From an uncultured Gammaproteobacteria bacterium (GTDB taxonomy: Bacteria; Patescibacteriota; Patescibacteriia; Magasanikbacterales; UBA922): a stretch of DNA of 64,000 bases. Below are positions 8,531 through 40,362 of this stretch, piece by piece (position 1 is the stretch's first letter; each line of letters opens with the position of its first letter). The position numbers were made by a program, and so were the translations under genes. The stretch spans positions 610,709-674,708 of the forward strand of contig OZ246405.1 of NCBI GenBank assembly GCA_965231005.1. Reading direction: 5' to 3'. The notes beneath the pieces were generated by a model. The model saw only the letters and a list, made by a program, of their open reading frames with translations. It was not told where the DNA came from and made no database searches.

Positions 8531-8532
8531 AG

Positions 8533-13869: not shown

Positions 13870-14067
13870 ATGTCCACAACAGTTCATCCAAAAGATAAAG
13901 ATACTAACAAACGTAATAAACGTTTGAATATTTTGATTGATGAATTACACAAAGAATTACGAGCAGTCCAAAAAGATGCGATTAGTCTCAGAATGAGTGC
14001 ACAAAAAGTTGTAGACAAGCAAAACATGAAGCACGTATTAGAGAAATTATTAGACAATGGTTCATAG
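13870..14067 (+). CDS. small coiled-coil hypothetical protein
   Basis: Start chosen at ATG 13870 (MSTTVHPKDKDTNKRNKRLNILIDELHKELRAVQKD...). The ORF-track start at 13813 would overlap the previous gene. Confidence 0.4.
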   Translation: MSTTVHPKDKDTNKRNKRLNILIDELHKELRAVQKDAISLRMSAQKVVDKQNMKHVLEKLLDNGS

Positions 14068-14083
14068 AATCATTCTTTTAACT

Positions 14084-17000
14084 ATGAGTCCAGATGCAAA
14101 CAATGTAGTCGAGTTATTTCCTGAAAATGAATATGGTCCTGATCGAGGACCTGTTAGTGATGAACAAAAAGAAGCCAATCGTAAGGCAAAAGGTGAGCTT
14201 GGTGATATTTTGAGAAAACTAGAAGATCTCCAATCATTGCGCGATAAAGTTGAAACAACACTTATTGAAGATGTTGAAGCACTTATTCAGCATATTAATA
14301 ATAAGGAATATCACGATGAAGTTGTTGTTCAAGTAAAAGAACTTCGAGAAAAACTCGACGAAATTAATAAAAAAATGGAAGGGGTTTCAAAGTCGATTGA
14401 AACACGAGAAGTGCGAAAGCAACGAGAGAGTTTTGAGTTTACAGTGTCAGATGTTCTTGATGTCGTCGGAAGAGATAAGCTGCGAAATATTATGGTTCAT
14501 TTTCCTGATATGAATGCAGGCGAGCGGCAGCAGGTGTTTACAGGACTTTTTGATCACCTGGATGAAGAACAATCCAAAAATTTAAATAGAGTAAGAAGAA
14601 AAAAAGCGTTCGAGGTGTTTGAACCTTTTTTTCAAACTGCAAAACAAAAAAAAGCATTGGACGAAGCAAAGCGCGCACCAAATGATCAAGTGAGAGTGAA
14701 ACTATTTGAAGCAGCAGGGCTTATTGAAGATGAGACTGACAGAGAAAACGTGCTTCATACACTTTCAGAAATTTCTTTTTCTGATGATGACAATAAAGCA
14801 TTTATTAAAACATGGAAAGATAATATGGCCTTGCAAGCGCTTGATTCTGTTGAGTTTTATGAATATGGTGCTGCAGAGCAAAAAGTATTAGAACTTGCAG
14901 CTATAGAGGCAAAAAAAGGAAAAAAGAAAAAGAAATATAAACAAACCAGTCTAAAACAAAAGTTTGTAAATCTTGGAAAAGGAATAAAAAATTTGGCAGT
15001 TGCAGCTGGACAGCATGTTAAAAAAGAGTGGTGGGCTATGGCTCCAGCTGCGACATTGGGTCTTGTTGCAAGACACGCTGCATTGTCAACAACTCCTGAT
15101 TTTTATGCAAAGGCACTTGAATTAACAGGGGATGAATCTCAGTCTGCATTTTTAGCAGCTGGTGGTGCAGCAGCACTTGGGACATATGCACTTGCAGAAC
15201 ATGGGATTCGAGCATTGAAAACTCGTCTTTCCGTAAAGCCTGACAAAGCATTTGCAGAAGTTTCTGGTTTGGCAAAAGACATGTACGTCTCTGATCAGAA
15301 AAAGGGTGGAGAATGGGTCCTTGCAGGACATATTAGTCATATATTGCAACATGGAGGAAAAGAAGGACAGCAAACACATGAACGGCATGTAGAAGTCCTC
15401 AAAGTAATTGCAAAAGAATTGAGAAAAAATGGAGAAAAAGTTGAAGCAAATAGTGAGTTTATGAAAGCAGCACTACTTGCTATTGATGTAAAGGATAGAA
15501 AACGTGGTGGACAGTCAATTCTTTCAGAAAAATACCAGTCTCTTGGATTTATTCGTCGGACTATTGCAGAGGTTCGCGATCAATTTTATACAAAAAAGTG
15601 GAAAGACATTGGTGTTGGTGGTTCTGCGTTACAATGGATGTCCGGTGCTGCATTACATACATTACACAAAGGCTTGATTGGTGGAACAATTGCATGGCCA
15701 ATGCAGCGACCAGAAATTTTTGGTTTGTTTAGTGAGCGATTGGCAGCACGCTTTGGTGCAGCTGCAGTACCTGGCTGGTTACAAGAATTAGCAACAAAAA
15801 GAGGGGAACAAAAAGAAGATAAATGGGAAATTGAGAGAAAACGTCTTGAAAAAGCAGTAAGTCCTGAAGCATATGGAAAATTAACTTTATATAAAGCAAC
15901 AAAAGTTTCAGAAGATCAATTGTTAGATATTCAAAGAGAAATCACAGAATTGAATTATTACATTAGCACCTGGAGTGATGTAAGCTCTCTCTCATCAGAT
16001 GGGAATAAATTAAAGCGTGCTGGAAGAAAAATTACAACCAATGTGCGTAAACAATTTCAAAGTGATTTGCTCGATGTGTGGCCACGGTATAAAACTGCTG
16101 CACTTGGTTTGCATCAAGAATATGAACGACTATATGAAGAAAAAAGACAGGAACTGATTGAAAAACAGTTAGCAAAAGTTTCCAAAAGTTTGTCAGAGGC
16201 AGGCAAAACAAAGCAAAGAGAAAAAATGCAAGAAGCCTTGCCGGAAAAATTGAAGAAACGAGAGAAAAAGAGAAATAAGAATATTCCGAAAAAGACATTT
16301 GACATGAAATTGCCAGATGAAAAAACACCAACAGAGCGATTGTTAGGAAATTCAAAAGTTGAGGTTGCTGATAGAAGAAAAACATTAGTACAAGGGTTGA
16401 AAATGGGAATGCTTGCTGCAGCATTTGGAAAGGCATTTGATATGGCACGAGTTCATTTTCCACATATTTTTGATAGACCACCAGAAGTCATTCCGCATGG
16501 CGCGTTTGCAGGTTGGGATGAAGATCCATTTATTGATCATGATCGGTATGACCAATATGGAAATGAAATTTTTCCAGACGATGCGTATCCGTCACAAGGA
16601 GAAGAAGCATCTCCGCCTGCTGAAACACCACAAGAACCAACTGTTCCAAAAAGAGATAGGACAAAAGAAGAAATTCGACGTCTTGCAGGTTTGGGTGGTC
16701 GTTCTGGTCGAGTTGAAGATATTCCAGTGCAGGGCGAAGACGCACTCGTGACAGAAAAAGACGAAGTTGCAAAAGGAACAGGACTTGATTCAAGTAAGGA
16801 TGGAAGTGCTGCACTCATTGGTGAACCAAAAGAACCAACATGGGAAGAAAAGATTGCAGAGCGTGGAAGTCCTGCAGAATCACTTTCAAAAACAGAACAG
16901 TACATGAAATATTTGATGAGAGAAGAACCTAAAAAATATTCAAAAGCAGATTTTAAATTATTTCAACACATGCAATCTATTTTGGAAAAACAAAATGAAT

Positions 17001-17332
17001 TTGTTGGAATTCGAGGAGTTCAATTGGATTCGTATCTCAGAGGAAAGGGGATAGATATGTCACTTCCTGAGGTGAGAGAACAATTTGAAAAAGTAGTCAC
17101 ACAGCACTATGATACTGTTCAAACATTTGAAAAGGGGATTATGCGTGGAAATACTATGAATACGCTAGAGAAGAAAATGAGAGAAATTATGCTTGGTTCA
17201 GAAGCTCTTAGCACAGATACTGATTTGTCTCGTTTTACTGGTTGGTTTGAAAGGGAAGTCCTTCCTCTATTCAAAAAGGCTGTTCATGCTGCTGAAGTCC
17301 GAAAGAGTAAGGCTGCTTTTCCACTAGAATAA
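14084..17332 (+). CDS. large (about 1080 aa) coiled-coil/membrane-associated hypothetical protein
   Basis: Long ORF with charged Lys/Glu-rich coiled-coil stretches and central hydrophobic segments (WWAMAPAATLGLVARHAALS, FLAAGGAAALGTYALAEHGI). No NTPase or enzymatic motif was recognised. The start at 14084 or 14057 is ambiguous. Confidence 0.65.
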   Translation: MSPDANNVVELFPENEYGPDRGPVSDEQKEANRKAKGELGDILRKLEDLQSLRDKVETTLIEDVEALIQHINNKEYHDEVVVQVKELREKLDEINKKMEGVSKSIETREVRKQRESFEFTVSDVLDVVGRDKLRNIMVHFPDMNAGERQQVFTGLFDHLDEEQSKNLNRVRRKKAFEVFEPFFQTAKQKKALDEAKRAPNDQVRVKLFEAAGLIEDETDRENVLHTLSEISFSDDDNKAFIKTWKDNMALQALDSVEFYEYGAAEQKVLELAAIEAKKGKKKKKYKQTSLKQKFVNLGKGIKNLAVAAGQHVKKEWWAMAPAATLGLVARHAALSTTPDFYAKALELTGDESQSAFLAAGGAAALGTYALAEHGIRALKTRLSVKPDKAFAEVSGLAKDMYVSDQKKGGEWVLAGHISHILQHGGKEGQQTHERHVEVLKVIAKELRKNGEKVEANSEFMKAALLAIDVKDRKRGGQSILSEKYQSLGFIRRTIAEVRDQFYTKKWKDIGVGGSALQWMSGAALHTLHKGLIGGTIAWPMQRPEIFGLFSERLAARFGAAAVPGWLQELATKRGEQKEDKWEIERKRLEKAVSPEAYGKLTLYKATKVSEDQLLDIQREITELNYYISTWSDVSSLSSDGNKLKRAGRKITTNVRKQFQSDLLDVWPRYKTAALGLHQEYERLYEEKRQELIEKQLAKVSKSLSEAGKTKQREKMQEALPEKLKKREKKRNKNIPKKTFDMKLPDEKTPTERLLGNSKVEVADRRKTLVQGLKMGMLAAAFGKAFDMARVHFPHIFDRPPEVIPHGAFAGWDEDPFIDHDRYDQYGNEIFPDDAYPSQGEEASPPAETPQEPTVPKRDRTKEEIRRLAGLGGRSGRVEDIPVQGEDALVTEKDEVAKGTGLDSSKDGSAALIGEPKEPTWEEKIAERGSPAESLSKTEQYMKYLMREEPKKYSKADFKLFQHMQSILEKQNEFVGIRGVQLDSYLRGKGIDMSLPEVREQFEKVVTQHYDTVQTFEKGIMRGNTMNTLEKKMREIMLGSEALSTDTDLSRFTGWFEREVLPLFKKAVHAAEVRKSKAAFPLE

Positions 17333-17539: not shown

Positions 17540-17568
17540 TTGACAAAATGGTAAAAATATGGTACAGT
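17540..17568 (+). promoter_or_regulatory. sigma70-type promoter (TTGACA-N17-TGgTACAGT) of the first G+C-rich operon
   Basis: TTGACA at 17540-17545 and TACAGT at 17563-17568, with a preceding TG. The 34-nt block 17537-17570 is 32/34 identical to 21721-21754. Confidence 0.65.
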
Positions 17569-17791
17569 TTGCTGTTTACAGTGCCCATATTGTGTATGAG
17601 CAGCATTTGTTGTGATCTCTTAGATTGTGACAGTTGCCAAGCAATATTTTTTCGCTGAAGTAAGCTAAAAAGTGCTGTAAAAAAATGCACATTACAAATA
17701 CATGATGCACCTATGTGTATTGGATTAGTCAATCAATGGATATTCTTTTTGCTGTCTTTTGATTGACTAACCCAATCAAGGAGGTGCAGTC

Positions 17792-19882
17792 ATGTCACCA
17801 GATCAGAAAAAACCTGATGGTGGTGCACATGGTAGTGCACCGCCGAAACGATCAACACTCGAACTTCATGCTGACAAGATCGTCAGCTTGGTCCAACAAG
17901 ACGGGCCAGAGGAGAACCCCATGACCGACAAGAAGACTGATACAACAACGCCGGGTCATGAGGTTCATGATTCGAATTCTGAAACCCCACCCCCGCTGCC
18001 AAGTGTGCTCGACTCGCTTGCTCCTGAGGACATAGCAAGAATAATAAGAGGAGAATCACAACCACTGCGAAGTGAATTGGTGCGATGTCCGAACTGTGGT
18101 GCTGTCTACCCTATGGATCAGGGAAAGGTCCAGGGTGGTTCTGAAAAGGATCAACAGTGTGTGTTGTGCCTTCATGAATTCACCCTCGGTGATGACAATG
18201 AAGCACAAGCAACAGCACAGTCTGAAACCCCACCACCAGTGCCTTCTTCGAACGTTCCGGCGGACAATGAGAAAATCCAATGTCCGAACTGCAAAACCAC
18301 ATTTCGGTCCATTGAAATCCTGCTTTGGGATCGCAATTACAAGTACGTCGTCTGCAGCCACGGATTCACCATCGATAACGACACTGAAGCACAAGCAACA
18401 GCACAGTCTGAAACCCCACCCCCACCCCCACTTCCGCTTCTCATTGGGGACAATGCCCCAGGTGGGAAGAACGTGACTTGCCCAAACTGCGATAAGGTCT
18501 ATTCACTGGATCCAGCTGACTTTGTAGGTGGTTTCCCGAACGTCTTTCAGTGCGCCCTATGCAATCATTGCTTCACTATCGATGATGAAACTGACGCACA
18601 GGATGACACACCACCTGCAATTCCGACCGCGCAGCAGCGTGCAGACAGAACAGGACTGACTGAGCCGTACAAGCCACTCGCCGACATCAAAGATCCAGAT
18701 GCTGATACGTCCACGATTCGTGAAACCATGCCAAGTCACCCGGGCCAAGCTCGTCGCGCTGAAAGCGATCACTACACGCAGGATGAACTTCCTCGCGTGG
18801 AAGATGAACGTGAAACACGGCAAGACCTTCCTGTTGTCACTGGCGATGATCAAGACACCAAGCCTGACATGGACGTTGTCAAAGCCGAAGACCTCGATGA
18901 AGACGATGCTGCTGAACTGGAAAAGGATGATGGCAAGGAAGCTGAAGAGCTGCCCCCGCCGATTTCAAGTCCCATGTTCAGTCCGGAACTGCGCAAACCA
19001 AACCCTGGTTTTCAGCTGCCTCCTCATCTCGAAGAGGTCGTTCGACTCTCTGCTGCTTCAACTCCCGATTCTCTTGCTTCCGGCGATGACGATCCATTCG
19101 GCGACGGCGGAGATCCCTTTGCTGGCCCAGGCACGAATCCCTTTGCTGTTGACGCAGATGATCCCTTCGGTGCTGAAGTTCCGTTCGGTCCAGGAGATGA
19201 TCTTGGGATGAAGGACGAAGACTACGGTGGTCCGAATGATTCTGTCGACGATGGTGATGAATTGCCTCCTGTCATGCCGGCTGATTCCAGTAAGGCGGCT
19301 CCCAAGCCGTCGCTGATTACTGGTTCCAGACCAAGGTTTCGTCCGACTGGACCTGTGCCTTCGGTTCACGATCAAGACGACAAAAGTGGCCCCCCGCCTC
19401 CTCGTCGTCAAGATCATCGAAAGACAATCCGAGTTCCACGTCATCGGCCGACTGCTCGTCCAGTGCCACCACCACCTCCTGGCCCGGCTCCCATTCGAAC
19501 GCCGACGCCTAGTGGTGGTTCACCCATTCCTGCATCTGCACCTGTTTCTACTCCGCCTCCGGCTGCGAGTACAACAGGACCGTCTGCTGCACCAACCCAG
19601 GCTGCTGCGGCTCCGCCCGCACAGTCACAACCGCCGGCTCCAACTGGGCCAGTGGTTGGTCCGACGGCATCAAGTGGCAGTGCTACTACACCGGTCAAGA
19701 CCAACAAGACCGTTGTGTGGATCATCGCCATTCTGATTGTTGCATGCCTGGCTCTCAATGCCTTTAGCGTGTGGCAAAGCAGAAACATCAGAAAGAACGT
19801 CATCGCGGTTCTGAAACATCGCGCTGGCATCCAAAAGGTCATTCAGGCTCCAATGCCGAAGACCAAGGGGGAAGAGAAATGA
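17792..19882 (+). CDS. G+C-rich tail-anchored protein with three MJ0042-like zinc-ribbon repeats and a long Pro/Asp-rich disordered region
   Basis: ATG at 17792 is preceded by AAGGAGGTG. There are three CPNC...(C/H)xxC units (aa 99-270). Long acidic and Pro-rich low-complexity stretches follow. A single C-terminal TM helix is VVWIIAILIVACLALNAFSVW. The stop overlaps the next start (ATGA at 19879-19882). Confidence 0.75.
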   Translation: MSPDQKKPDGGAHGSAPPKRSTLELHADKIVSLVQQDGPEENPMTDKKTDTTTPGHEVHDSNSETPPPLPSVLDSLAPEDIARIIRGESQPLRSELVRCPNCGAVYPMDQGKVQGGSEKDQQCVLCLHEFTLGDDNEAQATAQSETPPPVPSSNVPADNEKIQCPNCKTTFRSIEILLWDRNYKYVVCSHGFTIDNDTEAQATAQSETPPPPPLPLLIGDNAPGGKNVTCPNCDKVYSLDPADFVGGFPNVFQCALCNHCFTIDDETDAQDDTPPAIPTAQQRADRTGLTEPYKPLADIKDPDADTSTIRETMPSHPGQARRAESDHYTQDELPRVEDERETRQDLPVVTGDDQDTKPDMDVVKAEDLDEDDAAELEKDDGKEAEELPPPISSPMFSPELRKPNPGFQLPPHLEEVVRLSAASTPDSLASGDDDPFGDGGDPFAGPGTNPFAVDADDPFGAEVPFGPGDDLGMKDEDYGGPNDSVDDGDELPPVMPADSSKAAPKPSLITGSRPRFRPTGPVPSVHDQDDKSGPPPPRRQDHRKTIRVPRHRPTARPVPPPPPGPAPIRTPTPSGGSPIPASAPVSTPPPAASTTGPSAAPTQAAAAPPAQSQPPAPTGPVVGPTASSGSATTPVKTNKTVVWIIAILIVACLALNAFSVWQSRNIRKNVIAVLKHRAGIQKVIQAPMPKTKGEEK

Positions 19883-21558
19883 ATACGTTTATCAAGGTGC
19901 TACTCGCCATTCTCATCGGGGTTGTGGTCGCTGTGTCCGGCTACTTCGCATGGGAAACCATGAACACGAACAAGGCGCTCCTCGCTGAACTGAACAAGAC
20001 CGACAACGGTGCCCAGGAGGACACCAAGGTCAAGCCGGCGCCGAAGAAGTCGGCTGTCAAGAAAGCTGACAAGGCTTCCACGTCCCAGGCCAAGACGGCC
20101 GGCGACAAGAACGACCCCAAGAAGGTCGAGGAAGCTGCGAAGGCTGCCGAAGCCAAGAAGAAGGCCGAGGCCGAAGCTGCTGCCAAGGCTGCTGAAGCGA
20201 AGAAGAAGGCTGACGAAGCTCGCAACGACTGGGATGAAATCAACTCCCGTGGCGACGACCAACTCAGAGCTGAGAAGTTCGACGAAGCGTTCAAGACCTT
20301 CAAATCCTTGATCGGACACGAGCATCAGAATCATGGACTGGCTTACTACAACATCGCCTGCCTGTTCTCGGTGCAGTCTGTGTCAGACAAGCTCAAGGGC
20401 AAGAAGAAGGCGATTCGCAAGAGCAAGAAGCAAGCCCTCCACTACCTGGCTCAGGCCTGGGTAGCCGGCTACGACGACCTCGAATGGATGGAGAAAGACG
20501 AGGATCTCGATTCGATCCGCAAGACCCGCGGCTACAAAGAGATCAAGCGTCTGGCAGTGGAAAAGGGACTGGTTCGGCTCCCTGCGCCGGCCACCGAAGA
20601 CGTCGCCAAGAAGGCCAAGGATGAGCAGAAGGAACCCACGCCCAAGCTGACCGGCATCCACGCCCTGCGTGCCATGCCGATCAAGGGAGTTGCCGATTCT
20701 GACGAAGCCAGCAAGGCTGACAAGGACGCCAAGCGCATCGCCAACGCCAACGCCAAGAAGGTCAAGGGCAAGAAGGTTCGCAAAGGCAGCCGCGGCATCT
20801 CGTTCCTGGCCAAGGCTCGAGCCGAAGCCAAGCGGATGTACGCCAAGCTCCACAAGGACCAGAAGGCTCGTCGTGCAGCGCTCAACCGTGCGATCGCCCG
20901 ACTCAAGCGTGGCTACAAGCGCAAGAGCGATCTTGACAAGCAGGACGTTGACGACGAGATCGCAGAGCTCAAGCGAAAGGAGCAGGAACAGTCCGACGAC
21001 GAGGATCGGAAAGCCAAGGAAGAGGCCGAAAGGATGCTCGCCGACGGCAAGACCCAAGACGAGGTCAAGGCTATGTACGATGCTCTGGAGCGCAAGCAAC
21101 AGGCTCGTCGTGCAGCGCTCCTCAGCAAGATCGCGGACGAGCAAAGGCAGGCACGACAGCAGCGTCAGGATGATGCAGTCGACCTTCGCGATGAGATCGC
21201 CAAGCTGCGCGAAGCCGACAAAAAGGCTGACACGCAGTCCGCGGCAGCTGCCAAGGATCACGTGCAAGCCTTGTTCGACAAAGCGCAAGCCGCGACCAAC
21301 CGCGCCAACGCAAAGCGCGCGCGTCAACAGCGTCAGCGTGCGGCAGCGCCCTCGCGTCCGAGCTCGCCGCCCAGCCGTCCGGCTTCGGGTGGTTCGTCCA
21401 GCCTCGCACATGCGCCTGCGGCAGTTTCCAGCTGTCCGTATGGTGGAGACGAGGCCAACTGCGTCAAGAAGACGGTCGCGTACTTGACCAAGTTCGGTAC
21501 GCCCCTGGCCGATGCCAAGGGGAGTGCCAAGGCCAAGTGCAGCGCGCGCTGTCTGTAG
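19879..21558 (+). CDS. G+C-rich N-terminally anchored Lys/Ala-rich coiled-coil protein with a TPR-like segment and a C-terminal 4-Cys module
   Basis: Start ATG 19879 (MNTFIKVLLAILIGVVVAVSGYF is a TM anchor). A TPR-like block is YYNIACLFS...ALHYLAQAWVAGYDDLEWMEKDEDLDSIR. The C-terminus is CPYGGDEANCVKKTVAYLTKFGTPLADAKGSAKAKCSARCL. Confidence 0.72.
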   Translation: MNTFIKVLLAILIGVVVAVSGYFAWETMNTNKALLAELNKTDNGAQEDTKVKPAPKKSAVKKADKASTSQAKTAGDKNDPKKVEEAAKAAEAKKKAEAEAAAKAAEAKKKADEARNDWDEINSRGDDQLRAEKFDEAFKTFKSLIGHEHQNHGLAYYNIACLFSVQSVSDKLKGKKKAIRKSKKQALHYLAQAWVAGYDDLEWMEKDEDLDSIRKTRGYKEIKRLAVEKGLVRLPAPATEDVAKKAKDEQKEPTPKLTGIHALRAMPIKGVADSDEASKADKDAKRIANANAKKVKGKKVRKGSRGISFLAKARAEAKRMYAKLHKDQKARRAALNRAIARLKRGYKRKSDLDKQDVDDEIAELKRKEQEQSDDEDRKAKEEAERMLADGKTQDEVKAMYDALERKQQARRAALLSKIADEQRQARQQRQDDAVDLRDEIAKLREADKKADTQSAAAAKDHVQALFDKAQAATNRANAKRARQQRQRAAAPSRPSSPPSRPASGGSSSLAHAPAAVSSCPYGGDEANCVKKTVAYLTKFGTPLADAKGSAKAKCSARCL

Positions 21559-21578
21559 TCTGATCTGGTGAGAACCTG

Positions 21579-21660
21579 GCTTCCCGGTGCTCGTACGTTT
21601 ATTCGTACTTGCATCGGGAAGCCTCCTCACTTTCTTCTTTTTCTTGAAAAGAGGGGAAAG
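21579..21660 (+). terminator. 3' cassette module: G+C-rich hairpin followed by a CT/AG hairpin
   Basis: GGCTTCCCGGTGC...GCATCGGGAAGCC spans 21579-21623. CTTTCTTCTTTTTCTTGAAAAGAGGGGAAAG spans 21631-21660. Confidence 0.5.
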
Positions 21661-21723
21661 CAGGGAAAATACCTTATTTAAGCCAAAAAAGATAAGTTTT
21701 TATGGTCTATAAAGCCTAAATAC

Positions 21724-21752
21724 TTGACAAAATGGTCAAAATATGGTATAGT
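21724..21752 (+). promoter_or_regulatory. sigma70-type promoter (TTGACA-N17-TGgTATAGT), near-identical copy of the 17540 promoter
   Basis: TTGACA at 21724-21729 and TATAGT at 21747-21752, with an extended -10 TG. Confidence 0.65.
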
Positions 21753-21943
21753 TTCTGGTCAAAATTGATAAAATATATACCCTTATCTATTGGCGTGCCA
21801 GTGCATAATCCATGCAATATGCAGTGCGCGCGAGTGTGATAAGGTACAGAAAATGTACATCGTACATTCTTTGTGTGTCACACCGCTTTCCAGACGTTTT
21901 AACGTCATCCAACAGGTTCATTACATTACTACATCACTACAAC

Positions 21944-22086
21944 TGTTCGATCGGTAAACAAGTTCATAATATTTGTGTACTGCTTTACCGGTCGAACATT
22001 TCACATCGCCTTTCTGACCGGGGGCACAGTTAATTCCAAGGTACGTTACCAAGGAACAAATTGACTGCGCCTGGTTTTCTGGGCGA
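21944..22086 (+). promoter_or_regulatory. conserved structured 5' leader element, copy 1 (143 nt)
   Basis: It aligns along its length with 24885-25027. The long stem is GTTCGATCGGTAAA / TTTACCGGTCGAAC. Further hairpins have conserved stems and variable loops. It lies 27 nt upstream of the ATG at 22113. Confidence 0.6.
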
Positions 22087-22112
22087 CGTGAAACAACAGA
22101 AGGAGGTGCGCA

Positions 22113-23402
22113 ATGGCGTACGCCGTTCGAAAAACCCGATCCGGGGGTGCCGGACAATACGTTTCAGTTTTTTCCGACCGTGCTGCGGTTCTCCGAAAAA
22201 TCGCGCGAGGGATGATCCGCAAGGGTGCGTTCATTCGCGTGGTTCCGGACACGGCTGCTACCAACGATGGCGAGAAGGCCGCAGTCAAGGCTGATCTGGA
22301 TAACGCGGATTTCGTGCTCATCGAGAACCATCCGCATTTCGCTGGCATCAACTTCCCGGCGCCTGCTGACGCTTCGGCTGCTGCGACTGCGGATGCTGCG
22401 GCCACCCGTGCGAATGCCAATGCTGCTGCGGCCAATGTGACCGTTGCGGAGGCTACTGCTGCTCAGGCTCAAACCGAAGCCGACGCTGCTAACGCTCGTG
22501 CCAACGCTGCTGATGCCGCCACTGCTCAGGCCAACGCCGAGGCTACTGCTGCTCAGGCTCGTGTCGACGTTGCCAACGCTGCTGCTGCTCAGGCCAACGC
22601 CGAGGCTACTGCTGCTCAGGCTGCTGGGGATGCTGACGCTCAAGTTGCTGCTGCAGAGGCTGTTGCGGAGGCTGCTGCTGCTCAGGCCGATGCTGCTCAG
22701 GCACATGCCGACGCGGTTCAGGCTGCTGCGGATGCTGCTCAGGCTGCTGCGGATGCTGCTGACGCTGCTACCCAGGCTGGTGCTGCTGCCGGTCAGGCTC
22801 TGATCGCTACCAGTCAAGCTCGGGATGCTGCTGCTGAGGCTGAGGCTGAGGCGCTCGAGGCACAGGCCGATGCGGACGATGCTGCTGCCTTTGCTCAGGC
22901 TCAGGCCGACGAGCGGGCCAATCGCCGTTCGGTTCGGTTCGTCGCGTGGCTGCGTCGCAACTGGAAGAAGGTTCTGCTGGCTCTGCTGGTTCTCCTCCTT
23001 CTCGGTTGCGTGTGGTTCTTCTGGAGCAACATCAAGGCCCTGGTCACGGGGGGTGGTGGTTCGCCGCCGCCTTCGGTGGTGAACCCGCCGACCCCACCGA
23101 CGCCGCCCGTTCCGACGCCGCCCGTTCCGCCGCCGCCGGCTGCGACTCCGGTCGTTCCGCCGCCGACGGTGACGCCTCCGCCACCGCCCGCGACTCCGCC
23201 GGTTTCGCCGACGGTCACGCCTCCGCCGACCCCGCCGACTTCGGGGGGCACGGCAGCGCCGACTGGACAGCCTGGCTGTCCGTTCGGTGTGGGGTACACG
23301 GACTGTTACACCAAGACGGTGGCCTACCTGGTCAGCCATGGTGTGGCGACTTCGGACGCGCAGGACAAGGCGCGCGAGAAGTGCGGACCGCGTTGCAGGT
23401 GA
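22113..23402 (+). CDS. G+C-rich Ala-rich repeat protein with a central TM helix, a Pro/Thr-rich linker and a C-terminal 4-Cys module
   Basis: ATG is preceded by AAGGAGGTG. Repeats of the AAAQANAEATAAQA type occur. TM helix WKKVLLALLVLLLLGCVWFFW. A PPTPPTPPVPTPPVPPPP linker follows. The C-terminus is CPFGVGYTDCYTKTVAYLVSHGVATSDAQDKAREKCGPRCR. Confidence 0.72.
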   Translation: MAYAVRKTRSGGAGQYVSVFSDRAAVLRKIARGMIRKGAFIRVVPDTAATNDGEKAAVKADLDNADFVLIENHPHFAGINFPAPADASAAATADAAATRANANAAAANVTVAEATAAQAQTEADAANARANAADAATAQANAEATAAQARVDVANAAAAQANAEATAAQAAGDADAQVAAAEAVAEAAAAQADAAQAHADAVQAAADAAQAAADAADAATQAGAAAGQALIATSQARDAAAEAEAEALEAQADADDAAAFAQAQADERANRRSVRFVAWLRRNWKKVLLALLVLLLLGCVWFFWSNIKALVTGGGGSPPPSVVNPPTPPTPPVPTPPVPPPPAATPVVPPPTVTPPPPPATPPVSPTVTPPPTPPTSGGTAAPTGQPGCPFGVGYTDCYTKTVAYLVSHGVATSDAQDKAREKCGPRCR

Positions 23403-23410
23403 TGTAGCCT

Positions 23411-23500
23411 GTTGGAGGGAAGCCCGCTACCGGCGCATGCATTCGTGTGTGTGTCCGGTAGCCCTCCAACCGCTTTCTTTTATAAAAGAGAAAGAGGTTG
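23411..23500 (+). terminator. 3' cassette module: G+C-rich hairpin plus an overlapping CT/AG hairpin
   Basis: GTTGGAGGG (23411-23419) pairs with CCCTCCAAC (23462-23470). CCAACCGCTTTCTTTT...AAAAGAGAAAGAGGTTGG (23465-23500) reuses the 3' arm, so the two structures are mutually exclusive. Confidence 0.5.
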
Positions 23501-23824
23501 GGGGAATACAAAATTAGAAATTGGAAATTAGGGATTAAGTGTATTGACATATTGAGTAATAGAGAAAAGAAATTTTCTTTAGTACTCAGGGTGTCATGTA
23601 GACATTATTGTAAAATTACAATGTGTCTCGTGTCCTGATTAGACAGGTTCATTATAATTTAGTTGAAGAATAACTATCTGGTGGGTAAAAAGATAATATA
23701 CATATGTTACTTTTTTTCTCACCAGATAGTGGCACGTGCCGCTTGTTTCTTCGTCGCCCTTGGGGCATTTCACAAATGGCCCCATCGGTGAGGAGGGGCA
23801 AGGCAACAACAACAGGAGGACGCG

Positions 23825-24724
23825 ATGAACATCCGTCTCGTTTCGTTCATGATCGTCGCATCGGTGACGGTCGGTTTCATTTCCATCAACTCATTCGCGC
23901 AGGCACCGGCCGACTACCCAGCCGTTCGCGACGATGCGCACAAGGGTGCTTCGCTCGCCGAGTCCAACGCCAAGCGCCTGACCGCCCTGGAGAAGCGGAT
24001 CAAGCGGCTCAAGCGCGCCAAGGCTGCGGCCAAGGCCAAGCACACGGCCAACCCGACCCCCGCCAACAACGTCGCTCTGAAGGCCGCGGTCCGCGCGCTC
24101 GACGAGGCCAAGAAGGCAGGTCTGTCCATGTGCGCCCTGAAGACTGGCGAGGATTTCCGGCACTGCATCGACGTCGTGGAAGGCAAGGTGTTCGAGGTGG
24201 AGAAGGACTCCATCCGGATGGCCGCGCTGCTCGCAGTCGGCTGCATCGTGAAGGAGAACAAGTCCACAGATCCTTCCAAGGGTTCGAAAAAGGGCGCATC
24301 CATCACGACCACCGAGCTCGTCTGCGACAAGGACAAGGCCAAGAAGGCGCCGCGCTGCATCCGGTTCAAGCGCTTCAGCAAGCACGCGCACACCTACTTC
24401 GACGTCGGCGGTGACAACTGCAAGGAAGAAGACAGCAACCCGCTGCCCAAGAAGCCGGCGACTCCGCCCAAGCCCAAGGCCGAACCGTGGTCCAAGGGCA
24501 AGCGTTTGCTGGCCAGCGCTGGCATGTGCCTGCTGGCCGGTGGTGTGCTCGCTGTTCCTGGTTACGTCATCGGCGACGCCATCGAGGGCGGTCACTGGGA
24601 GACCAATCCGGAGACCGGCAACGACGACTGGTATGCGCCCAAGGGTCCGCTCGGTGCTGGCATCGGCGGTCTGACCGGCTGCCTCAGCGCGTTCGCGGGC
24701 ACATGGAGTGCGACGAGCGAGTAG
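23825..24724 (+). CDS. G+C-rich secreted/membrane protein, function unknown
   Basis: ATG is preceded by AGGAGG. Signal peptide MNIRLVSFMIVASVTVGFISINSFAQA. Lys/Ala-rich helix. Several Cys residues. C-terminal hydrophobic Gly-rich segments (LLASAGMCLLAGGVLAVPGYVIG; GAGIGGLTGCLSAFAG). Confidence 0.68.
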   Translation: MNIRLVSFMIVASVTVGFISINSFAQAPADYPAVRDDAHKGASLAESNAKRLTALEKRIKRLKRAKAAAKAKHTANPTPANNVALKAAVRALDEAKKAGLSMCALKTGEDFRHCIDVVEGKVFEVEKDSIRMAALLAVGCIVKENKSTDPSKGSKKGASITTTELVCDKDKAKKAPRCIRFKRFSKHAHTYFDVGGDNCKEEDSNPLPKKPATPPKPKAEPWSKGKRLLASAGMCLLAGGVLAVPGYVIGDAIEGGHWETNPETGNDDWYAPKGPLGAGIGGLTGCLSAFAGTWSATSE

Positions 24725-24748
24725 CCTTTCTTCAACTGCTGAATCTGT

Positions 24749-24826
24749 CGGGGGTTGGTAGCATGTTCATTCATGTCTGTCAACCCCCGTCGGAATATCT
24801 TTCTCTTTGTAAAAAGGGAGAGATGA
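24749..24826 (+). terminator. 3' cassette module: G+C-rich hairpin followed by a CT/AG hairpin
   Basis: CGGGGGTTG (24749-24757) pairs with CAACCCCCG (24781-24789). ATCTTTCTCTTTGTAAAAAGGGAGAGAT spans about 24797-24826. Confidence 0.5.
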
Positions 24827-24884
24827 ACGATTATTGTTCATTACAATTGAGAAACTACTACAGAAACATCTTGAATACCTTTTG

Positions 24885-25027
24885 TGTTCGATCGGTAAAC
24901 AAGTACATAACATTTGTGTACTGCTTTACCGGTCGGACATTTCCACATCGCCTTTTTGACCGGGGGCACAGTTAATCCGTGGCGTGTTGCCGCGGACCAA
25001 ATTGACTGCGCCTGAGAAATTGGGCGA
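24885..25027 (+). promoter_or_regulatory. conserved structured 5' leader element, copy 2 (143 nt)
   Basis: Homologous to 21944-22086. The stem substitution A to G keeps pairing as G-U. One hairpin is replaced by CCGTGGC-GTGTT-GCCGCGG. It lies 44 nt upstream of the ATG at 25072. Confidence 0.6.
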
Positions 25028-25071
25028 TTGTGGAATGATTCGGGCGAGACCCGAGAAAAGAGAGGTAACTC

Positions 25072-28000
25072 ATGAACAGCAAGCTCAACACGATTTCCGT
25101 TTGTTTCGTGGCGCTGATGATCGTTTTCGGGTGCAGCCCGGACGCGAGCTACAAGCCCAACGACCCCAAGAACCCCAACCCGGCCCGCAAGGCCGATGCC
25201 AACAACAGCGACACCAGCAGCGCGGATGCGGGTTCGAGCGCGGATACCGGTCAGCCGACCGATCCGTGCGCCGATCCCAAGTTCTGCAACGATGGCAAGG
25301 TCTGCACGGCCGACACCTGCAAGGACGGCAAGTGCAAGCACACCATCGACGCGACGCTCTGTGATGACGGCAACCCCTGCACACATGACCTGTGTGACGA
25401 CCTGGGGATCTGTGTGAACAAGGCTCACGAAGGTTCGTGCCAGGACGGGAATGCCTGTACTGTGGGTGATCATTGCAAGAATGGCACCTGCCAGTCGGGA
25501 AAGAACATGCCCTGTCCCAACGAGAACTCGTGTGTCATCGCAACCTGCAACCCGAAAGAAGGCAAGTGCAACTACGAGCCCAAGAGCGGTGACTGCAACG
25601 ACGGCAACAAGTGCACGGTTGGCGATTTCTGCATCAACCAGAAGTGCAAGAGCGGTTTCAAGAAGTTGGACTGTGATGACAAGAACGTGTGCACGACTGA
25701 CAGCTGCAATCCAGAAGACGGTTGTGTTCACAAGCCGATCGACCTTCCCTGCAGCGACAACAGCTCGTGTACCATCTCGGATAAGTGCAAGGACGGAAAA
25801 TGCGTGGGCCAGGTTGTCAACTGCGACGACAAGAACCCGTGCACGACCGACTCGTGCGATCCGGCGGCGCCCCCGGGCAAGGCATGCAAGCACGTGAACA
25901 ACACCAGCGAGTGCGACGACGGCAACAAGTGCACGTCCGGCGACGTTTGCCAGGATGGTCAGTGTAAGAAGGGAACCACGTCGGTCGATTGCGACGACGG
26001 GAACCCGTGCACTACCAATTCCTGCGACGCCAAGGTCGGCTGCCAGAAGCTCAACAACAACAACTCGTGCGACGACGGCAACAACTGCACCATCAATGAC
26101 AAGTGCTTTAACGGCAAGTGCAACTCCACTACCAAGAAGTGTGGCGACAGCAACAAGTGCGTCACCAACACGTGCGACCAGGCAACTGGCGCGTGTGTGA
26201 AAAAGGAGCTGTGCGACGACGGCAAGGCCTGCACCGAAAACACGTGCGACATCAACACCGGCAAGTGCGAAAACCCTGACAAGAAGTGCGACGACGGCAA
26301 GGCCTGCACCAAGGATAGCTGCAACACCACCACGGGCAAGTGCGAGTACGAGATGATCGTTGGTGCGAACTGCTTCTGCAAGTTCGACTCCAACTGTGAC
26401 GACGGAAACGAGTGCACTGTCAGCGCATGCGATAAGGCGACTGGCAAATGCGCGCTCGCGAAGAAGTACAGCGGGACCTCGTGTGACGACGGGAACCCGT
26501 GCACCACCTCGGACAAGTGCGACCCCAAGACCGGCAAGTGCTCGTCGGCAAAGGCCACGGCCTGCGACGACGGGAACCCCTGCACGGACGACTCCTGCGA
26601 CCCCACGGTCGTTGGCGGTTGTGTGGCGGTGAAGAACAACAAGCTGTGTGACGACGGTGACGCGTGCACCAAGGGTGATATCTGCCTGGACGGCGCGTGT
26701 AACCCCGGCAAGGCCCCGGTCTGCGACGACGGCAACATCTGCACGGATGACAGCTGTGACTCGAAGCTCGGATGCAAGAACACGGCCAACTCGGCCAGCT
26801 GCTCGGATGGGAGCGCCTGCACCTCAAACGACAAGTGCGAGGGCGGGAGCTGCAAGAGCGTTGCGGTGAAATGCGACGACTCCAACCCCTGTACCGACGA
26901 TAGCTGCGACGCGAAGGTCGGCTGCAAGTACGCCAAGAACACCAAGCCGTGTAACGACGGTGACGAGTGTACCATCAGCGAGGTGTGCAAAGACGGCAAG
27001 TGTGGTTCTGGCAAGGCCAAGTCGTGCGACGACAACAAGAAGTGTACCATCGACTCGTGCGACAAGGACAAGGGCTGCCAGCACAAGCAGATTTCCTCGG
27101 CGACCTGCTGCGCTTCGGACGCTGAGTGCGACGATAAAAAGCCGTGCACGGTGGACAAGTGCGATCCGAAGGAAGGTTGCAAGAACACCAAGAAGCTCTG
27201 CTCGGACAACAACCAGTGCACCGACGACGTGTGTGATCCCCAGTCTGGAGATTGCAAGCACACGAAGTTCAGTGGACCGGCCTGCGACGACGGCAACAGT
27301 TGTACCAAATCCGAGAAGTGCGAAAAGGGCAAGTGCGAAGCTGGCTTTACCATCAAGTGCAACGACAACAAACCCTGCACCAAGGATACGTGCGACACCA
27401 AGGGCGGATGCGTCTTCACCAAGACCGTGGATCCCTGCGACGACGGGGACGCGTGTACGAATGGAGACAAGTGCGCCAATGGCGAGTGCGTGTCTGGCAA
27501 GCAGATCGTCTGCGACGACAACAAGGTCTGCACGACCGACAGCTGTGACTCCAAGAAGGGGTGCGTGTTCGCGAACAATTCGGATGCCTGTACGGACGGA
27601 AACGCCTGTACACCGAATGACGTCTGCAAGGACGGCAAGTGCTCGTCGCAGCCTGAGAACTGTGACGACGCGAACGCGTGTACCAACGACAGTTGTGACA
27701 AGAGCAAGGGCTGCAAGCACATCAACAACACCAAGGTCTGCAACGACGGCAACAAGTGTACGGACAACGGAGTCTGCAGTGGCGGCGCCTGCAAGCCGGG
27801 CAAAGCCATCAACTGCGACGACGGCAAGAAGTGCACGACGGATAGCTGTGACCCGACCACGGGCAAGTGCAAGAACGTGGCGCTGGTGTGCGATGACGAC
27901 GCCTGTACGGATGGCGATGGCAAGTGTGACGAGAGCACGGGCAAGTGTGCAGTGGGTCTTCCCAAGAACTGCACTGACACCGACGTGTGTACCAAGAATT

Positions 28001-28593
28001 TCTGCTCGGAAGGAACCTGCAAGGTCTCTCCGAACTGCGATGACGGGAACGCATGCACGGCTGATAGCTGTGACCCAAAGAAGCCCGAGAAGGATCAGTG
28101 TTCGCACGTCCCGATCTCGGGTTGCAAGTCGGTCGAGGTCAAGCTCTCCGTGGTTTTTTCTGAGATGTTCAAGATGGAAGCCGCACCCAAGGGTGGCAAC
28201 TACGTCCGGTTCTTCGTCAAGAAGTGCGAGGCCAAGGCTGCTGACGGCTCGTCCGTCATGTTGCTCAAGCCTGGCTCCTTCTACGGAGGCGCTGAGATCA
28301 AGAACAGCTCGAAGCTCGAGTACACCAATCCTGCAAAGGTCCAGGACTTCGTGCAGATCCCGAAGAATGCCTGCTGCATCAACATCGTAGGGTACCAAAG
28401 CAGTAAGATCTCCAATCCTTACGGGGACTCGAAGATCTGGGCTTTCAGTACGACTCCCAATACCAAGACCCACAACATGGAGCCGGTCCTCACGACCAGC
28501 AATGGACTGACGTACAAGTTCACGTTGAAAGACGTCCATGACAACGGTGTGGGGGGATACGACGCGTGCAACAGCGAAGTCATCTCCAAGTAG
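25072..28593 (+). CDS. G+C-rich giant Cys-rich repeat lipoprotein (CDDGNxCTxDxC-type repeats, roughly forty copies) with a distinct C-terminal domain
   Basis: The N-terminus MNSKLNTISVCFVALMIVFGC is a probable lipoprotein signal. From about aa 66 to 985 there are ~24-aa units in two alternating flavours: CDDxNxCTxDxCDxxxGCxH and CxDGNxCTxxDxCxxGxC. The last ~180 aa are non-repetitive. Confidence 0.85.
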   Translation: MNSKLNTISVCFVALMIVFGCSPDASYKPNDPKNPNPARKADANNSDTSSADAGSSADTGQPTDPCADPKFCNDGKVCTADTCKDGKCKHTIDATLCDDGNPCTHDLCDDLGICVNKAHEGSCQDGNACTVGDHCKNGTCQSGKNMPCPNENSCVIATCNPKEGKCNYEPKSGDCNDGNKCTVGDFCINQKCKSGFKKLDCDDKNVCTTDSCNPEDGCVHKPIDLPCSDNSSCTISDKCKDGKCVGQVVNCDDKNPCTTDSCDPAAPPGKACKHVNNTSECDDGNKCTSGDVCQDGQCKKGTTSVDCDDGNPCTTNSCDAKVGCQKLNNNNSCDDGNNCTINDKCFNGKCNSTTKKCGDSNKCVTNTCDQATGACVKKELCDDGKACTENTCDINTGKCENPDKKCDDGKACTKDSCNTTTGKCEYEMIVGANCFCKFDSNCDDGNECTVSACDKATGKCALAKKYSGTSCDDGNPCTTSDKCDPKTGKCSSAKATACDDGNPCTDDSCDPTVVGGCVAVKNNKLCDDGDACTKGDICLDGACNPGKAPVCDDGNICTDDSCDSKLGCKNTANSASCSDGSACTSNDKCEGGSCKSVAVKCDDSNPCTDDSCDAKVGCKYAKNTKPCNDGDECTISEVCKDGKCGSGKAKSCDDNKKCTIDSCDKDKGCQHKQISSATCCASDAECDDKKPCTVDKCDPKEGCKNTKKLCSDNNQCTDDVCDPQSGDCKHTKFSGPACDDGNSCTKSEKCEKGKCEAGFTIKCNDNKPCTKDTCDTKGGCVFTKTVDPCDDGDACTNGDKCANGECVSGKQIVCDDNKVCTTDSCDSKKGCVFANNSDACTDGNACTPNDVCKDGKCSSQPENCDDANACTNDSCDKSKGCKHINNTKVCNDGNKCTDNGVCSGGACKPGKAINCDDGKKCTTDSCDPTTGKCKNVALVCDDDACTDGDGKCDESTGKCAVGLPKNCTDTDVCTKNFCSEGTCKVSPNCDDGNACTADSCDPKKPEKDQCSHVPISGCKSVEVKLSVVFSEMFKMEAAPKGGNYVRFFVKKCEAKAADGSSVMLLKPGSFYGGAEIKNSSKLEYTNPAKVQDFVQIPKNACCINIVGYQSSKISNPYGDSKIWAFSTTPNTKTHNMEPVLTTSNGLTYKFTLKDVHDNGVGGYDACNSEVISK

Positions 28594-28640
28594 TTCTCAA
28601 GAAAATGATCACTCCCTCCTGCGCAATGTGATCTGCCGTG

Positions 28641-28712
28641 GACGGGCTCGAGCCTGAAACTCGAGTCCGTCCCGGCCGCGCAACTCCGAATATGATTCAC
28701 GTCTATTCGGAG
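28641..28712 (+). terminator. two G+C-rich hairpins closing the island
   Basis: GACGGGCTCGAG-CCTGAAA-CTCGAGTCCGTC spans 28641-28671. CTCCGAATA-...-TATTCGGAG spans 28684-28712. Confidence 0.45.
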
Positions 28713-39910: not shown

Positions 39911-40362
39911 AATATACCAAATAAGCAGTAATTTGTCAAGGTAGTCATTATTCTCTTTTTTTGTGCCTTTTATCCTGATAAATGAGCATATTTGTATAGA
40001 CTAGTGTACACAAAATTTAGCATTCATATTTATTTATATTAAGGCAAAAACTTATAAAAAAGTATAGACTAGTCTATACAAATTTATCTCATTCTAAGGA
40101 CAGGAAGAGAGCAGCTACTTATTGATTTGAGCCTTTTTGCCTTTTCGCTTTTTTGCGTTTTCAGATATTGACTTTTTTGTAATAATAGTGTTAAATATTG
40201 CACGATTATGGGATATCTTGGTTGTTTTTTGTCTATGATTCTGTTATACTCTTCCCGTATAAAAAGATATCTCTATTGGTTTTAGTGGTATTTTCAGTTT
40301 TTGATCAATATAACTCTAAATTTCGCGGGTGTAACATTTTTGTTATTTGCTCGTCTTCTTAT

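Follow-up and report, generated by a model that had tools for sequence, protein, structure and literature searches.

A lipobox protein with a long Dicty_CTDC cysteine-repeat array, a candidate adhesin stalk, in a GC-rich island of a Candidatus Magasanikbacteria genome

The DNA described here (the window, a stretch of 64,000 nucleotides) comes from a bacterium which, judged from its IF3, is a CPR member of Ca. Magasanikbacteria: the IF3 matches that name a lineage all give this one, bar one 'Patescibacteria group'. Within the window, an island of ~11 kb (17.8–28.7 kb) carries five plus-strand genes for envelope proteins, the last of which (the target) encodes the cysteine-repeat protein considered below. 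Features of the island and of the target are the following.

17540..17568, plus strand: sigma-70-like promoter with TG (TTGACA-17-TACAGT; 10/12, consensus match only), located in AT-rich DNA ahead of gene 1.
17790..28700, no strand: extent of the GC-rich island (genes 54–66% GC, spacers 37–45% GC; genome ~35%).
17792..19882, plus strand: island gene 1, 696 aa; its protein carries zinc ribbons (MJ0042/Zn_ribbon_4), a region that is acidic and rich in Pro, and a TM helix at the C-terminus.
19879..21558, plus strand: island gene 2, 559 aa; its protein has a TM helix at the N-terminus, a coiled coil rich in Lys, Ala and Glu, and a TPR_END_plus match.
21724..21752, plus strand: sigma-70-like promoter with TG (TTGACA-17-TATAGT; 11/12 matches), located in the AT-rich spacer that precedes gene 3.
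22113..23402, plus strand: island gene 3, 429 aa, comprising an Ala-rich coiled coil, a TM helix and a stretch rich in Pro; its C-terminus bears a 4-Cys motif that resembles the one in gene 2.
23825..24724, plus strand: island gene 4, 299 aa including 8 Cys; its protein starts with a signal peptide, contains a basic coiled stretch and ends in a Gly-rich double TM.
25072..28593, plus strand: target ORF, 1173 aa, which ends the ~11 kb island.
25072..25134, plus strand: target lipoprotein signal peptide, aa 1–21, I-V-F-G-C21 (pattern-level match).
25135..25266, plus strand: target Cys-free low-complexity tether, aa 22–65.
25267..28125, plus strand: target array of ~37 Dicty_CTDC four-Cys units, aa 66–1018, 150 Cys, in alternating A/B forms.
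28126..28593, plus strand: target C-terminal module, aa 1019–1173, 4 Cys, predicted mostly beta, and stop codon.

The target starts 6 nt downstream of a Shine-Dalgarno-like GAGAGG. Its N-terminus, MNSKLNTISVCFVALMIVFG followed by C21, agrees with the lipobox pattern (MIVFG-C21), defined as [LVI][ASTVI..][GAS]C after a positive n-region and a hydrophobic h-region with the Cys at position 15–35; K4, a hydrophobic stretch at aa 8–19 and VFG-C21 correspond to it, and the putative export signal is this lipobox (IVFG-C21), recognised at pattern level only. The linker (aa 22–65) is rich in Asp, Asn, Pro and Ser and holds zero Cys; the array behind it consists of ~37 tandem units of 24–30 aa (~25 aa) with 4 Cys apiece. 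Form A of the unit reads C-x5-C-T-x3-C... and form B C-x5-C-T-x4-C..., and their alternation at aa 97–357, 442–652 and 710–915 produces a super-period of ~51 aa (150–156 nt). The protein is very rich in Asp (150 residues), Asn and Cys, the last amounting to 156 residues (13.3%), of which 154 belong to the mature form; Lys outnumbers Arg by 140 to 2. An earlier note on this DNA, made from the letters, had described most of this correctly (a real 1173-aa ORF on the plus strand, a lipoprotein-like signal, about forty Cys repeats in two alternating forms); its non-repetitive C-terminal domain exists, at ~155 aa and not ~180 aa, and its count of >200 Cys was too high.

The repeats belong to Pfam Dicty_CTDC (PF00526), which matches the target in 18 stretches at 303.2 bits (cutoff 27, E=1.5e-92), with multiple tandem copies above the gathering threshold and the ~24-aa four-Cys units present; by this score the repeats lie far beyond chance. 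The likeness to Dictyostelium CTDC repeats proposed earlier is thereby borne out; that to the Myxococcus repeats found no counterpart, as an NCBIfam profile search of the target returned zero families at E<=0.01 or E<=10, the presence of myxo_disulf_rpt (TIGR02232) in release 20.0 being unconfirmed. Like the target, the Dictyostelium PF00526 proteins (extracellular-matrix, stalk) are secreted and built of tandem ~24-aa four-Cys units with a C-D-D-x-N-x-C-T-x-D-x-C core; the target differs in being bacterial and lipoprotein-anchored, with alternating forms in a ~51-aa super-repeat and an orphan end module. In bacteria the family is large (>7,000 matches).

Among the matches listed, the closest homologues share 34–45% identity over 58–94% of the query. 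Those with lineage names, a minority of the matches, are mostly from Myxococcales or 'Deltaproteobacteria' MAGs, and the two homologue contigs examined (P0001 and P0002) are uniformly 63–73% GC, in line with the high-GC, deltaproteobacteria-like affinity suggested earlier. Many homologues likewise have an N-terminal lipobox and far more Lys than Arg; because this bias is shared by high-GC homologues, an adaptation of the target to an AT-rich genome was ruled out as its cause. The CTDC lipoproteins of high-GC MAGs (P0001, P0002, P0026) resemble the target in the lipobox followed by long CTDC arrays and in the Lys excess. They differ in length (mostly 1500–2050 aa against 1173 aa), in composition (in the two high-GC contigs the gene matches its genome, whereas the target has 58% GC in a 35% GC CPR genome) and in their other added domains or lack of any, the target's C-terminal module occurring in 0/120 matches listed. 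The extra Pfam domains found beside the repeats in homologues are diverse and include lectin-, protease- and β-helix-type domains, as would be expected of a generic stalk whose tip can be exchanged. The repeat family itself is already known; its host, the persistent GC-rich composition of the cassette and the orphan tip are unusual.

In an alignment of six units from 39 sequences, all 24 Cys columns are invariant. An AF2 model of six units of the target (aa 498–651) is a β-hairpin array with one hairpin per unit (pLDDT 96.8). No solved structural counterpart of this model was found, and the Dicty_CTDC family is given as one without known structure (PMC8078820); the confident model marks this large bacterial family as a structural target. 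The model's top structural neighbour, the Gal/GalNAc lectin heavy chain of Entamoeba histolytica (PDB 9gja, 9gjf), is non-significant (Foldseek E=0.07–0.1, TM ~0.2); this lectin is also a Cys-rich extended surface adhesin, an analogy only. The BFVD fold library gave no match.

The AF2 model of the C-terminal module is unusable (pLDDT 36). Among 1.84 billion representatives, the module has one relative (P0241, E=7.5e-14), a paralogue encoded on the same 1,232,850-bp contig. Like the target, P0241 (724 aa) begins with a lipobox (LLAG-C) and continues through an acidic linker and CTDC repeats to the end module (38% identical, with conserved Cys). Its repeats number only ~11, and its acidic linker is much longer. 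Searches of genomes, metagenomes and viral contigs, which also missed contigs known to exist, returned no further locus with the tip or with the 427-aa cassette protein of the relatives described below, and no viral contig with the tip.

The base composition and codon usage of the island are foreign to the host. GC3 is 0.82 in the target and reaches 0.84 in the island, against ~0.23 in host genes; G+C at fourfold sites is 0.80 in the target, ~0.2 in host genes and 0.92 in the donor-type P0001, and A at these sites is 0.05–0.09 in island genes 2–5 and 0.23 in gene 1, versus 0.39–0.49 in the host. Gene 1 (GC 0.54) is preceded by AAGGAGG, and an identical copy of its protein is found on the 1.23 Mb NCBI contig. 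The start of gene 2 (GC3 0.72) overlaps the stop of gene 1, and its C-terminal 4-Cys motif reads CPYG..C..KTVAYL..KC..RC; gene 4 has the GC3 of 0.84. Pfam, NCBIfam and PHROG searches found no integrase or transposase in the island, no direct repeats flank it, and the nearest tRNA is 11 kb off. A phage or mobile-element origin was rejected, the only PHROG match being weak (phrog_197, E=1e-4, in the Pro-rich stretch of gene 3).

In relatives whose IF3 is 75% identical (L009–L012), the locus of the island is taken up by a GC-rich cassette of three genes (GC3 0.67–0.81): one of 250 aa, one of 427 aa and one for a CTDC lipoprotein, the last compared without its 3' end. Like the target's, it lies downstream of SmpB, AI-2E and Wzz and combines high GC3 with lower-GC spacers, and the order of genes is common to both: a TM protein with CPF..C..C, a signal-peptide/double-TM protein and the CTDC lipoprotein. 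The relatives lack the two upstream genes of the target island (Zn-ribbon, TPR_END coiled coil), and the accompanying proteins are barely alignable: gene 3 is homologous to the 250-aa gene in its N-terminal 77 aa (E=3e-5), and gene 4 is the positional equivalent of the 427-aa gene, with a similarity of E=0.09 only. Between strains that are otherwise identical, the relatives' CTDC gene varies in its 5' part. A third Magasanikbacteria lineage (IF3 66%) has a related Zn-ribbon and Cys-repeat cluster at the same locus, its Cys-repeat protein matching Pfam Cu-binding_MopE. The syntenic site of the relatives is occupied and not empty as expected for a recent gain, and the presence of an equivalent cassette in such diverged relatives shows that the island is no recent strain-specific insertion.

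Repeat similarity proved uninformative as a test of shared ancestry versus independent acquisition of the CPR CTDC genes, consensus-like high-GC homologues outscoring the CPR proteins, and the phylogenetic signal in the repeat regions is of no use. From the domain types (CTDC repeats, MJ0042 zinc ribbons) and the names of a minority of matches, the source of the cassette would be a high-GC, Myxococcota-like lineage, and its GC-rich, foreign codons explain the deltaproteobacterial look of the target. The earlier note had taken the protein for an oddity in a CPR-type cell; the host is indeed such a cell, but the ~11 kb foreign-codon island had been missed, and its equivalents in diverged Magasanikbacteria lay beyond what the letters could show.

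On balance, and by a modest step above even chance, we favour a lipid-anchored, probably disulfide-stapled CTDC stalk that displays a lineage-specific tip, likely an adhesin, encoded in a horizontally acquired cassette. A lipid on Cys21 would anchor the protein at the outer surface of the cytoplasmic membrane; a flexible tether of ~45 aa would follow, and then a long rod of ~37 β-hairpin units with four invariant Cys each, the 154 mature Cys probably all being paired in up to 77 disulfides. At its distal end the rod would carry the ~155-aa, lineage-specific, β-rich putative tip module, and as a rigid, protease-resistant stalk it would most likely hold this tip off the cell for adhesion to a partner cell or surface. 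CPR bacteria are commonly episymbionts. The cassette of envelope proteins would have reached the Magasanikbacteria lineage via horizontal transfer. Partner attachment and surface make-up being largely unknown in CPR/Patescibacteria, the target is a concrete, testable candidate for a surface structure.

Less probable, though deserving serious attention, is a structural component of the envelope or matrix, in which disulfide-rich rods would form or cross-link a surface layer or sheath and the C-terminal module would serve self-assembly or binding of the cell's own glycans. Dictyostelium repeat proteins (ecmA/ecmB) are described in the slime sheath and stalk matrix. The target lies inside a large locus which, around the island, is given over to envelope glycans (GT4, Wzy_C, Wzz, epimerase, carbamoyltransferase), the same genome encodes the second protein with this tip, and the companion proteins, membrane-spanning coiled coils with small Cys-containing ectodomains, suggest an envelope structure of several proteins. 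A single lipid anchor, a long monomeric rod and a distinct end module are, however, the usual design of an adhesin or display protein, the lectin-, protease- and β-helix-type domains of homologues suggest displayed functional heads, and self-association is without evidence.

As to the history of the adhesin-like stalk and its cassette, the AT-rich spacers and the high GC3 that lasts even in diverged lineages are at odds with a simple neutral amelioration following a single ancient transfer; they raise the question of how a GC3 of 0.7–0.8 is kept in lineages at ~0.23 while the spacers are host-like. Tentatively, and as a distinctly less likely elaboration, the cassette could be a long-standing, actively maintained attachment apparatus of the Magasanikbacteria clade, derived from a high-GC Myxococcota-like lineage, perhaps the symbiont's host, or refreshed time and again through recombination with it; selection, biased gene conversion or recurrent replacement would preserve its G/C-ending codons in the face of strong AT pressure in the genome, and the tip would be a determinant of host recognition. 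If true, this would provide a concrete candidate adhesin of a CPR episymbiont, and the gene set would exemplify one that stays stably 'un-ameliorated'.

The disulfides proposed for the stalk raise the question of how a protein with so many of them is folded in an organism of ~1.2 Mb whose other exports are mostly Cys-poor. Pfam scans of the ORFs of the 64 kb window found no thiol-oxidoreductase (Dsb), VKOR or thioredoxin domain, as the earlier note had stated for disulfide-handling genes, and neither Lgt nor LspA is encoded there. Of the other exported host proteins that the window encodes, most have 0–4 Cys in 600–1300 aa, as is expected of organisms that avoid extracytoplasmic disulfides. 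A search of the literature yielded no paper dealing with PRJEB17505, CPR disulfide systems or Cys-rich Magasanikbacteria proteins. That the window lacks a disulfide-forming gene would suit a thiol- and carboxylate-rich metal-binding protein or redox buffer, its 154 Cys kept reduced in an anoxic, Dsb-free setting and chelating together with the 150 Asp, as would the abundance of Asp, Asn and Cys and the Cu-binding_MopE match of the same-locus repeats in the third lineage; we consider it improbable, since the invariant four-Cys spacing, the even mature Cys count and the confident, compact, metal-free hairpin model are typical of disulfide-stapled extracellular repeats, and the family abounds in high-GC bacterial lineages of aerobic type.

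A 2025 preprint also names Dicty_CTDC as one of the domains that occur in the variable N-terminal parts of teneurin-like toxins of bacteria, and the target could accordingly be compared with a polymorphic toxin in which the rod is a variable presentation region and the orphan module a contact-dependent effector. A second carrier protein bears a copy of this lineage-specific module, and the variable 5' part of the CTDC gene in the relatives' strains points the same way. This seems very improbable: a YD/Rhs shell is lacking, Pfam, NCBIfam and PHROGs gave zero toxin-domain matches, no candidate immunity gene lies downstream, where the next gene encodes the Wzy_C polymerase, and the conserved Cys and predicted β-rich character of the module are typical of extracellular binding domains.

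Scarcely credible, and largely refuted, is an artefact or dead cargo (a chimera of CPR and high-GC DNA from assembly or binning, or a recently acquired, unexpressed passenger), for which the extreme compositional contrast and the absence of the exact 1173-aa protein from the called genes of the contig index (probably since repeats break short-read assemblies) could speak: L001, L002 and L003 (two separate runs) are 99.99–100% identical across both junctions, and such reproduction in independent assemblies excludes a chimera; a single chimeric join cannot produce GC-rich genes alternating with AT-rich spacers; one 1.23 Mb contig contains the paralogue together with island gene 1 and the gene for IF3; the same host genes adjoin equivalent cassettes in NCBI GCA_964612105.1, ENA ERZ23499085 and two JGI metagenomes; and the 3.5 kb ORF is intact with each repeat Cys conserved.

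A minus-strand ORF at 22164–23339, suggested by the GC frame plot, was rejected as a real gene: its translation is low-complexity Arg/Ser, and the plus-strand product contains a TM helix, shares its C-terminal motif with gene 2 and is matched by a homologue among the relatives. Outside the island, a native lipobox protein (IGFG-C) of host composition is encoded at 5938–6549.

The open reading frame at 25072..28593 (+) was borne out, with a product of 1173 aa and a GAGAGG motif 6 nt 5' of its ATG. The N-terminus, MNSKLNTISVCFVALMIVFG-C21, matches the lipoprotein lipobox pattern, and the remainder of the protein is divided as follows.

aa 22-65: tether, Cys-free, Asp/Asn/Pro/Ser-rich
aa 66-1018: repeat array, ~37 four-Cys units, each of 24-30 aa
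aa 1019-1173: C-terminal module, ~155 aa, non-repetitive, to the protein end

Two unit forms, A (C-x5-C-T-x3-C) and B (C-x5-C-T-x4-C), alternate at aa 97-357, 442-652 and 710-915. Cysteines number 156, of which 154, an even number, are in the mature protein; the figure of more than 200 in the earlier note was wrong. At the DNA level the repeats have a period of 150-156 nt and the units are only 60-80% identical, so the repeats are old and diverged, not recently amplified.

Assignment of the repeats to Dicty_CTDC (PF00526), as had been proposed, is supported by Pfam (E=1.5e-92; 303 bits vs. a cutoff of 27; 18 stretches); the myxo_disulf_rpt family, also proposed, gave no match in NCBIfam, where the TIGR model would sit, even at E<=10. 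A search of 5.8 billion proteins, with 8,000 candidates scored, gave at least 7,047 homologues at E<=1e-5, the best with 44% identity across 77% of the query; almost all contain PF00526, and most are 1500-2050 aa long. The minority with a named lineage is mostly from Myxococcales or 'Deltaproteobacteria' MAGs, in agreement with the deltaproteobacterial relatives foreseen. Many homologues have a lipobox start and Lys >> Arg; both are therefore family traits. Contigs of the two best homologues are uniformly high in GC (P0001, 69-73%; P0002, 63-68%), and the neighbouring genes are ordinary housekeeping genes. The protein adds one member to a known family, the function and structure of which are so far uncharacterised.

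Dicty_CTDC was among the repeat families without known structure in a 2021 survey (PMC8078820), and no PDB chain was matched in a sequence search. Six units (aa 498-651) were modelled from 39 aligned homologous segments, with 24 of 24 Cys columns invariant; the model is very confident (mean pLDDT 96.8), with each unit predicted as one β-hairpin. Foldseek with this model against PDB gave nothing significant (top, Entamoeba Gal/GalNAc lectin heavy chain, E=0.07), and a BFVD fold search gave no match. The AF2 model of the C-terminal module (pLDDT 36) was unusable.

The earlier note was right that the ORF and its repeats are real; it overlooked the island in which they lie. Window GC is ~35% outside 17.8-28.7 kb and 54-66% within this stretch, which contains five genes, all on the + strand.

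Gene 1, +: 696-aa MJ0042/Zn_ribbon_4 protein, C-terminal TM helix
Gene 2, +: 559-aa TM coiled-coil protein, TPR_END_plus match
Gene 3, +: 429-aa Ala-rich coiled-coil TM protein
Gene 4, +: 299-aa protein, signal peptide, Gly-rich double TM
Gene 5, 25072..28593, +: the CTDC-repeat lipoprotein

GC3 is 0.72-0.84 in genes 2, 4 and 5 vs. ~0.23 (range 0.17-0.31) in host genes; G+C at fourfold sites is 0.43-0.80 in island genes, ~0.2 in host genes and 0.92 in P0001; A-ending codons at these sites make up 0.05-0.09 in genes 2-5, 0.23 in gene 1 and 0.39-0.49 in host genes. Spacers between the island genes have 37-45% GC and contain strong sigma-70-like promoter matches at 17540-17568 and 21724-21752. 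A search for marks of mobility (integrase, direct repeats at the flanks, a tRNA next to the island) was negative. The AT-rich spacer 5' of gene 4 holds a 28-nt inverted repeat (23673-23730; 82% complementary, 2-nt gap), which could be a candidate operator or terminator. Genes 2 and 3 share the C-terminal motif CP[FY]G..C..KTVAYL..KC..RC. A ~40-aa four-Cys tail, CP[FY]..C..[K]TVAY[LI]..KC..[RP]C, is present in both and in a 250-aa protein of related Magasanikbacteria, each time preceded by a TM or Pro-rich segment and without a family match in the libraries searched.

Window 21430-21555: four-Cys tail
Window 23274-23399: four-Cys tail
L010 (locus of a relative) 2468-2620, minus strand: four-Cys tail

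A second GC-rich islet (4503-5423, +; start probably 4596; GC 0.59, GC3 0.70) lies between PPDK and tRNA-Asp and encodes an Arg-rich product of 275-306 aa with no Pfam or PHROG match and, by tblastn, no counterpart in relatives L009-L012; its presence suggests that the host genome has taken up high-GC DNA repeatedly.

Window 6723-6799, -: tRNA-Asp(GTC)

All lineage-named IF3 homologues are from Candidatus Magasanikbacteria except one 'Patescibacteria group', and NCBI taxonomy places the phylum Magasanikbacteria within the Parcubacteria group of Patescibacteria; the host is a CPR bacterium. An identical IF3 was found on a 1.23 Mb contig. The C-terminal module is present in 0 of the 120 best repeat homologues and had no match in a word-indexed search; when 1.84 billion representatives were scanned exhaustively with HMMER, a single relative, P0241, was convincing (E=7.5e-14). 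P0241 has 724 aa; its lipobox and acidic linker are followed by ~11 CTDC units and then the same module (38% identity, Cys conserved). One NCBI contig of 1,232,850 bp carries P0241 together with island gene 1 and the IF3 of the window, which makes P0241 a paralogue within this genome; the module, having this protein as its sole convincing relative, is a lineage-specific orphan.

Magasanikbacteria with 75% identical IF3 are represented in three further sources, at NCBI (GCA_964612105.1), at ENA (a 224 kb scaffold) and at JGI (two metagenomes), and share with the host the backbone PK, PPDK ... L20, L35, IF3, SmpB, AI-2E ... Wzz. At the corresponding site they have three genes in a stretch of 54-61% GC.

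250-aa protein: gene 3 homologue (N-terminal 77 aa, E=3e-5), same CPF..C..C tail
427-aa protein: gene 4 architecture, similarity only E=0.09
CTDC lipoprotein: start MRKYTHSFKNLFCLVAVVALSS-C

GC3 of these genes is 0.67, 0.74 and 0.81 vs. 0.23-0.31 in adjoining genes, with spacers of 38-49% GC. The same locus in the more distant L013 (GCA_964433095.1; IF3 66%) has a Zn-ribbon-like 573-aa gene (GC3 0.70), adjoined by a gene for a TM coiled-coil protein with Pfam Cu-binding_MopE-type Cys repeats; this gene pair of a third Magasanikbacteria lineage (L013 1-2384) has a GC above that of its flanks. With cassettes at the same locus in diverged relatives, the cassette is not a recent strain-specific insertion; it may have been inherited from a common ancestor or acquired repeatedly. 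Comparison of the repeat regions gave no lineage signal, and locus searches for further examples were empty, but also missed contigs already known. Under neutral amelioration, high GC3 would not be expected to persist in parallel beside spacers that are host-like. L010, L011 and L012 are ~100% identical over 12 kb, yet their first 300 bp differ by 3-16% and the next 300 bp by 0-3%; positions 1-600 are the 5' part of the CTDC gene, and the variation suggests repeat shuffling or diversifying selection, with assembly noise possible as contig ends are near. Directly 5' of the island, a Lys/Glu-rich, Cys-free host protein of 1091 aa (14057-17332, +) has no family match; its position is held by a 1039-aa gene in L013 (2689-5808; no similarity by tblastn at E<=1e-3), a 993-aa gene at the P0126 locus and a different 389-aa gene in L009-L012.

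The protein is most likely a lipid-anchored, disulfide-stapled stalk that would present the C-terminal module as a lineage-specific tip, and whose role would be that of an adhesin or of a displayed binding module; its gene belongs to an envelope-protein cassette of putative Myxococcota-like origin. In homologues, CTDC arrays are joined to many different extra Pfam domains, which supports the idea of a stalk with a tip. What is unusual is the context: the cassette is persistently GC-rich and sits in a CPR host, the tip is an orphan, and there is a paralogue. As a rival, the protein may form a structural matrix or envelope layer; as another, it may carry a contact-dependent effector, and Dicty_CTDC is annotated in bacterial teneurin-like proteins. 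A third rival is a reduced, metal-binding protein. Dsb, VKOR and thioredoxin domains are absent from all window ORFs scanned, so that the earlier note's statement on disulfide-handling genes holds for the window, and its large exported host proteins mostly have 0-4 Cys. A 203-aa ORF of host composition (5938-6549, -) with 8 Cys and a lipobox (…LLPLIGFG-C) is a lipoprotein candidate; it points to lipoproteins, and to some exported proteins with Cys, as native features of the host. An artefact or dead cargo is largely refuted. The left island junction was recovered in contigs from the assemblies of two separate runs (ERZ930065, ERZ930061) and the right junction in one of these contigs, both at 99.99-100% identity; this recurrence in other assemblies makes a chimera very unlikely.

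A very large envelope-glycan locus (28832-63497 and 12838-13437) contains at least eight GT4 glycosyltransferases, three Wzy_C (O-antigen ligase-like) proteins and Wzz, together with a GHL15/FG-GAP protein, an NAD epimerase and a carbamoyltransferase. At 40198-42199 (+), the gene of a DUF5667 protein comes after that of an ECF-type sigma factor; the two look like a candidate sigma/anti-sigma-type pair. A tmRNA (8530-8929, -; Rfam 137.7 bits; tag peptide ANLVNRVKSAIANAFSTPALATAVA) lies beside smpB; its start is at 8532 according to ARAGORN, and it overlaps the 3' end of the annotated IF3 ORF by ~47 nt.
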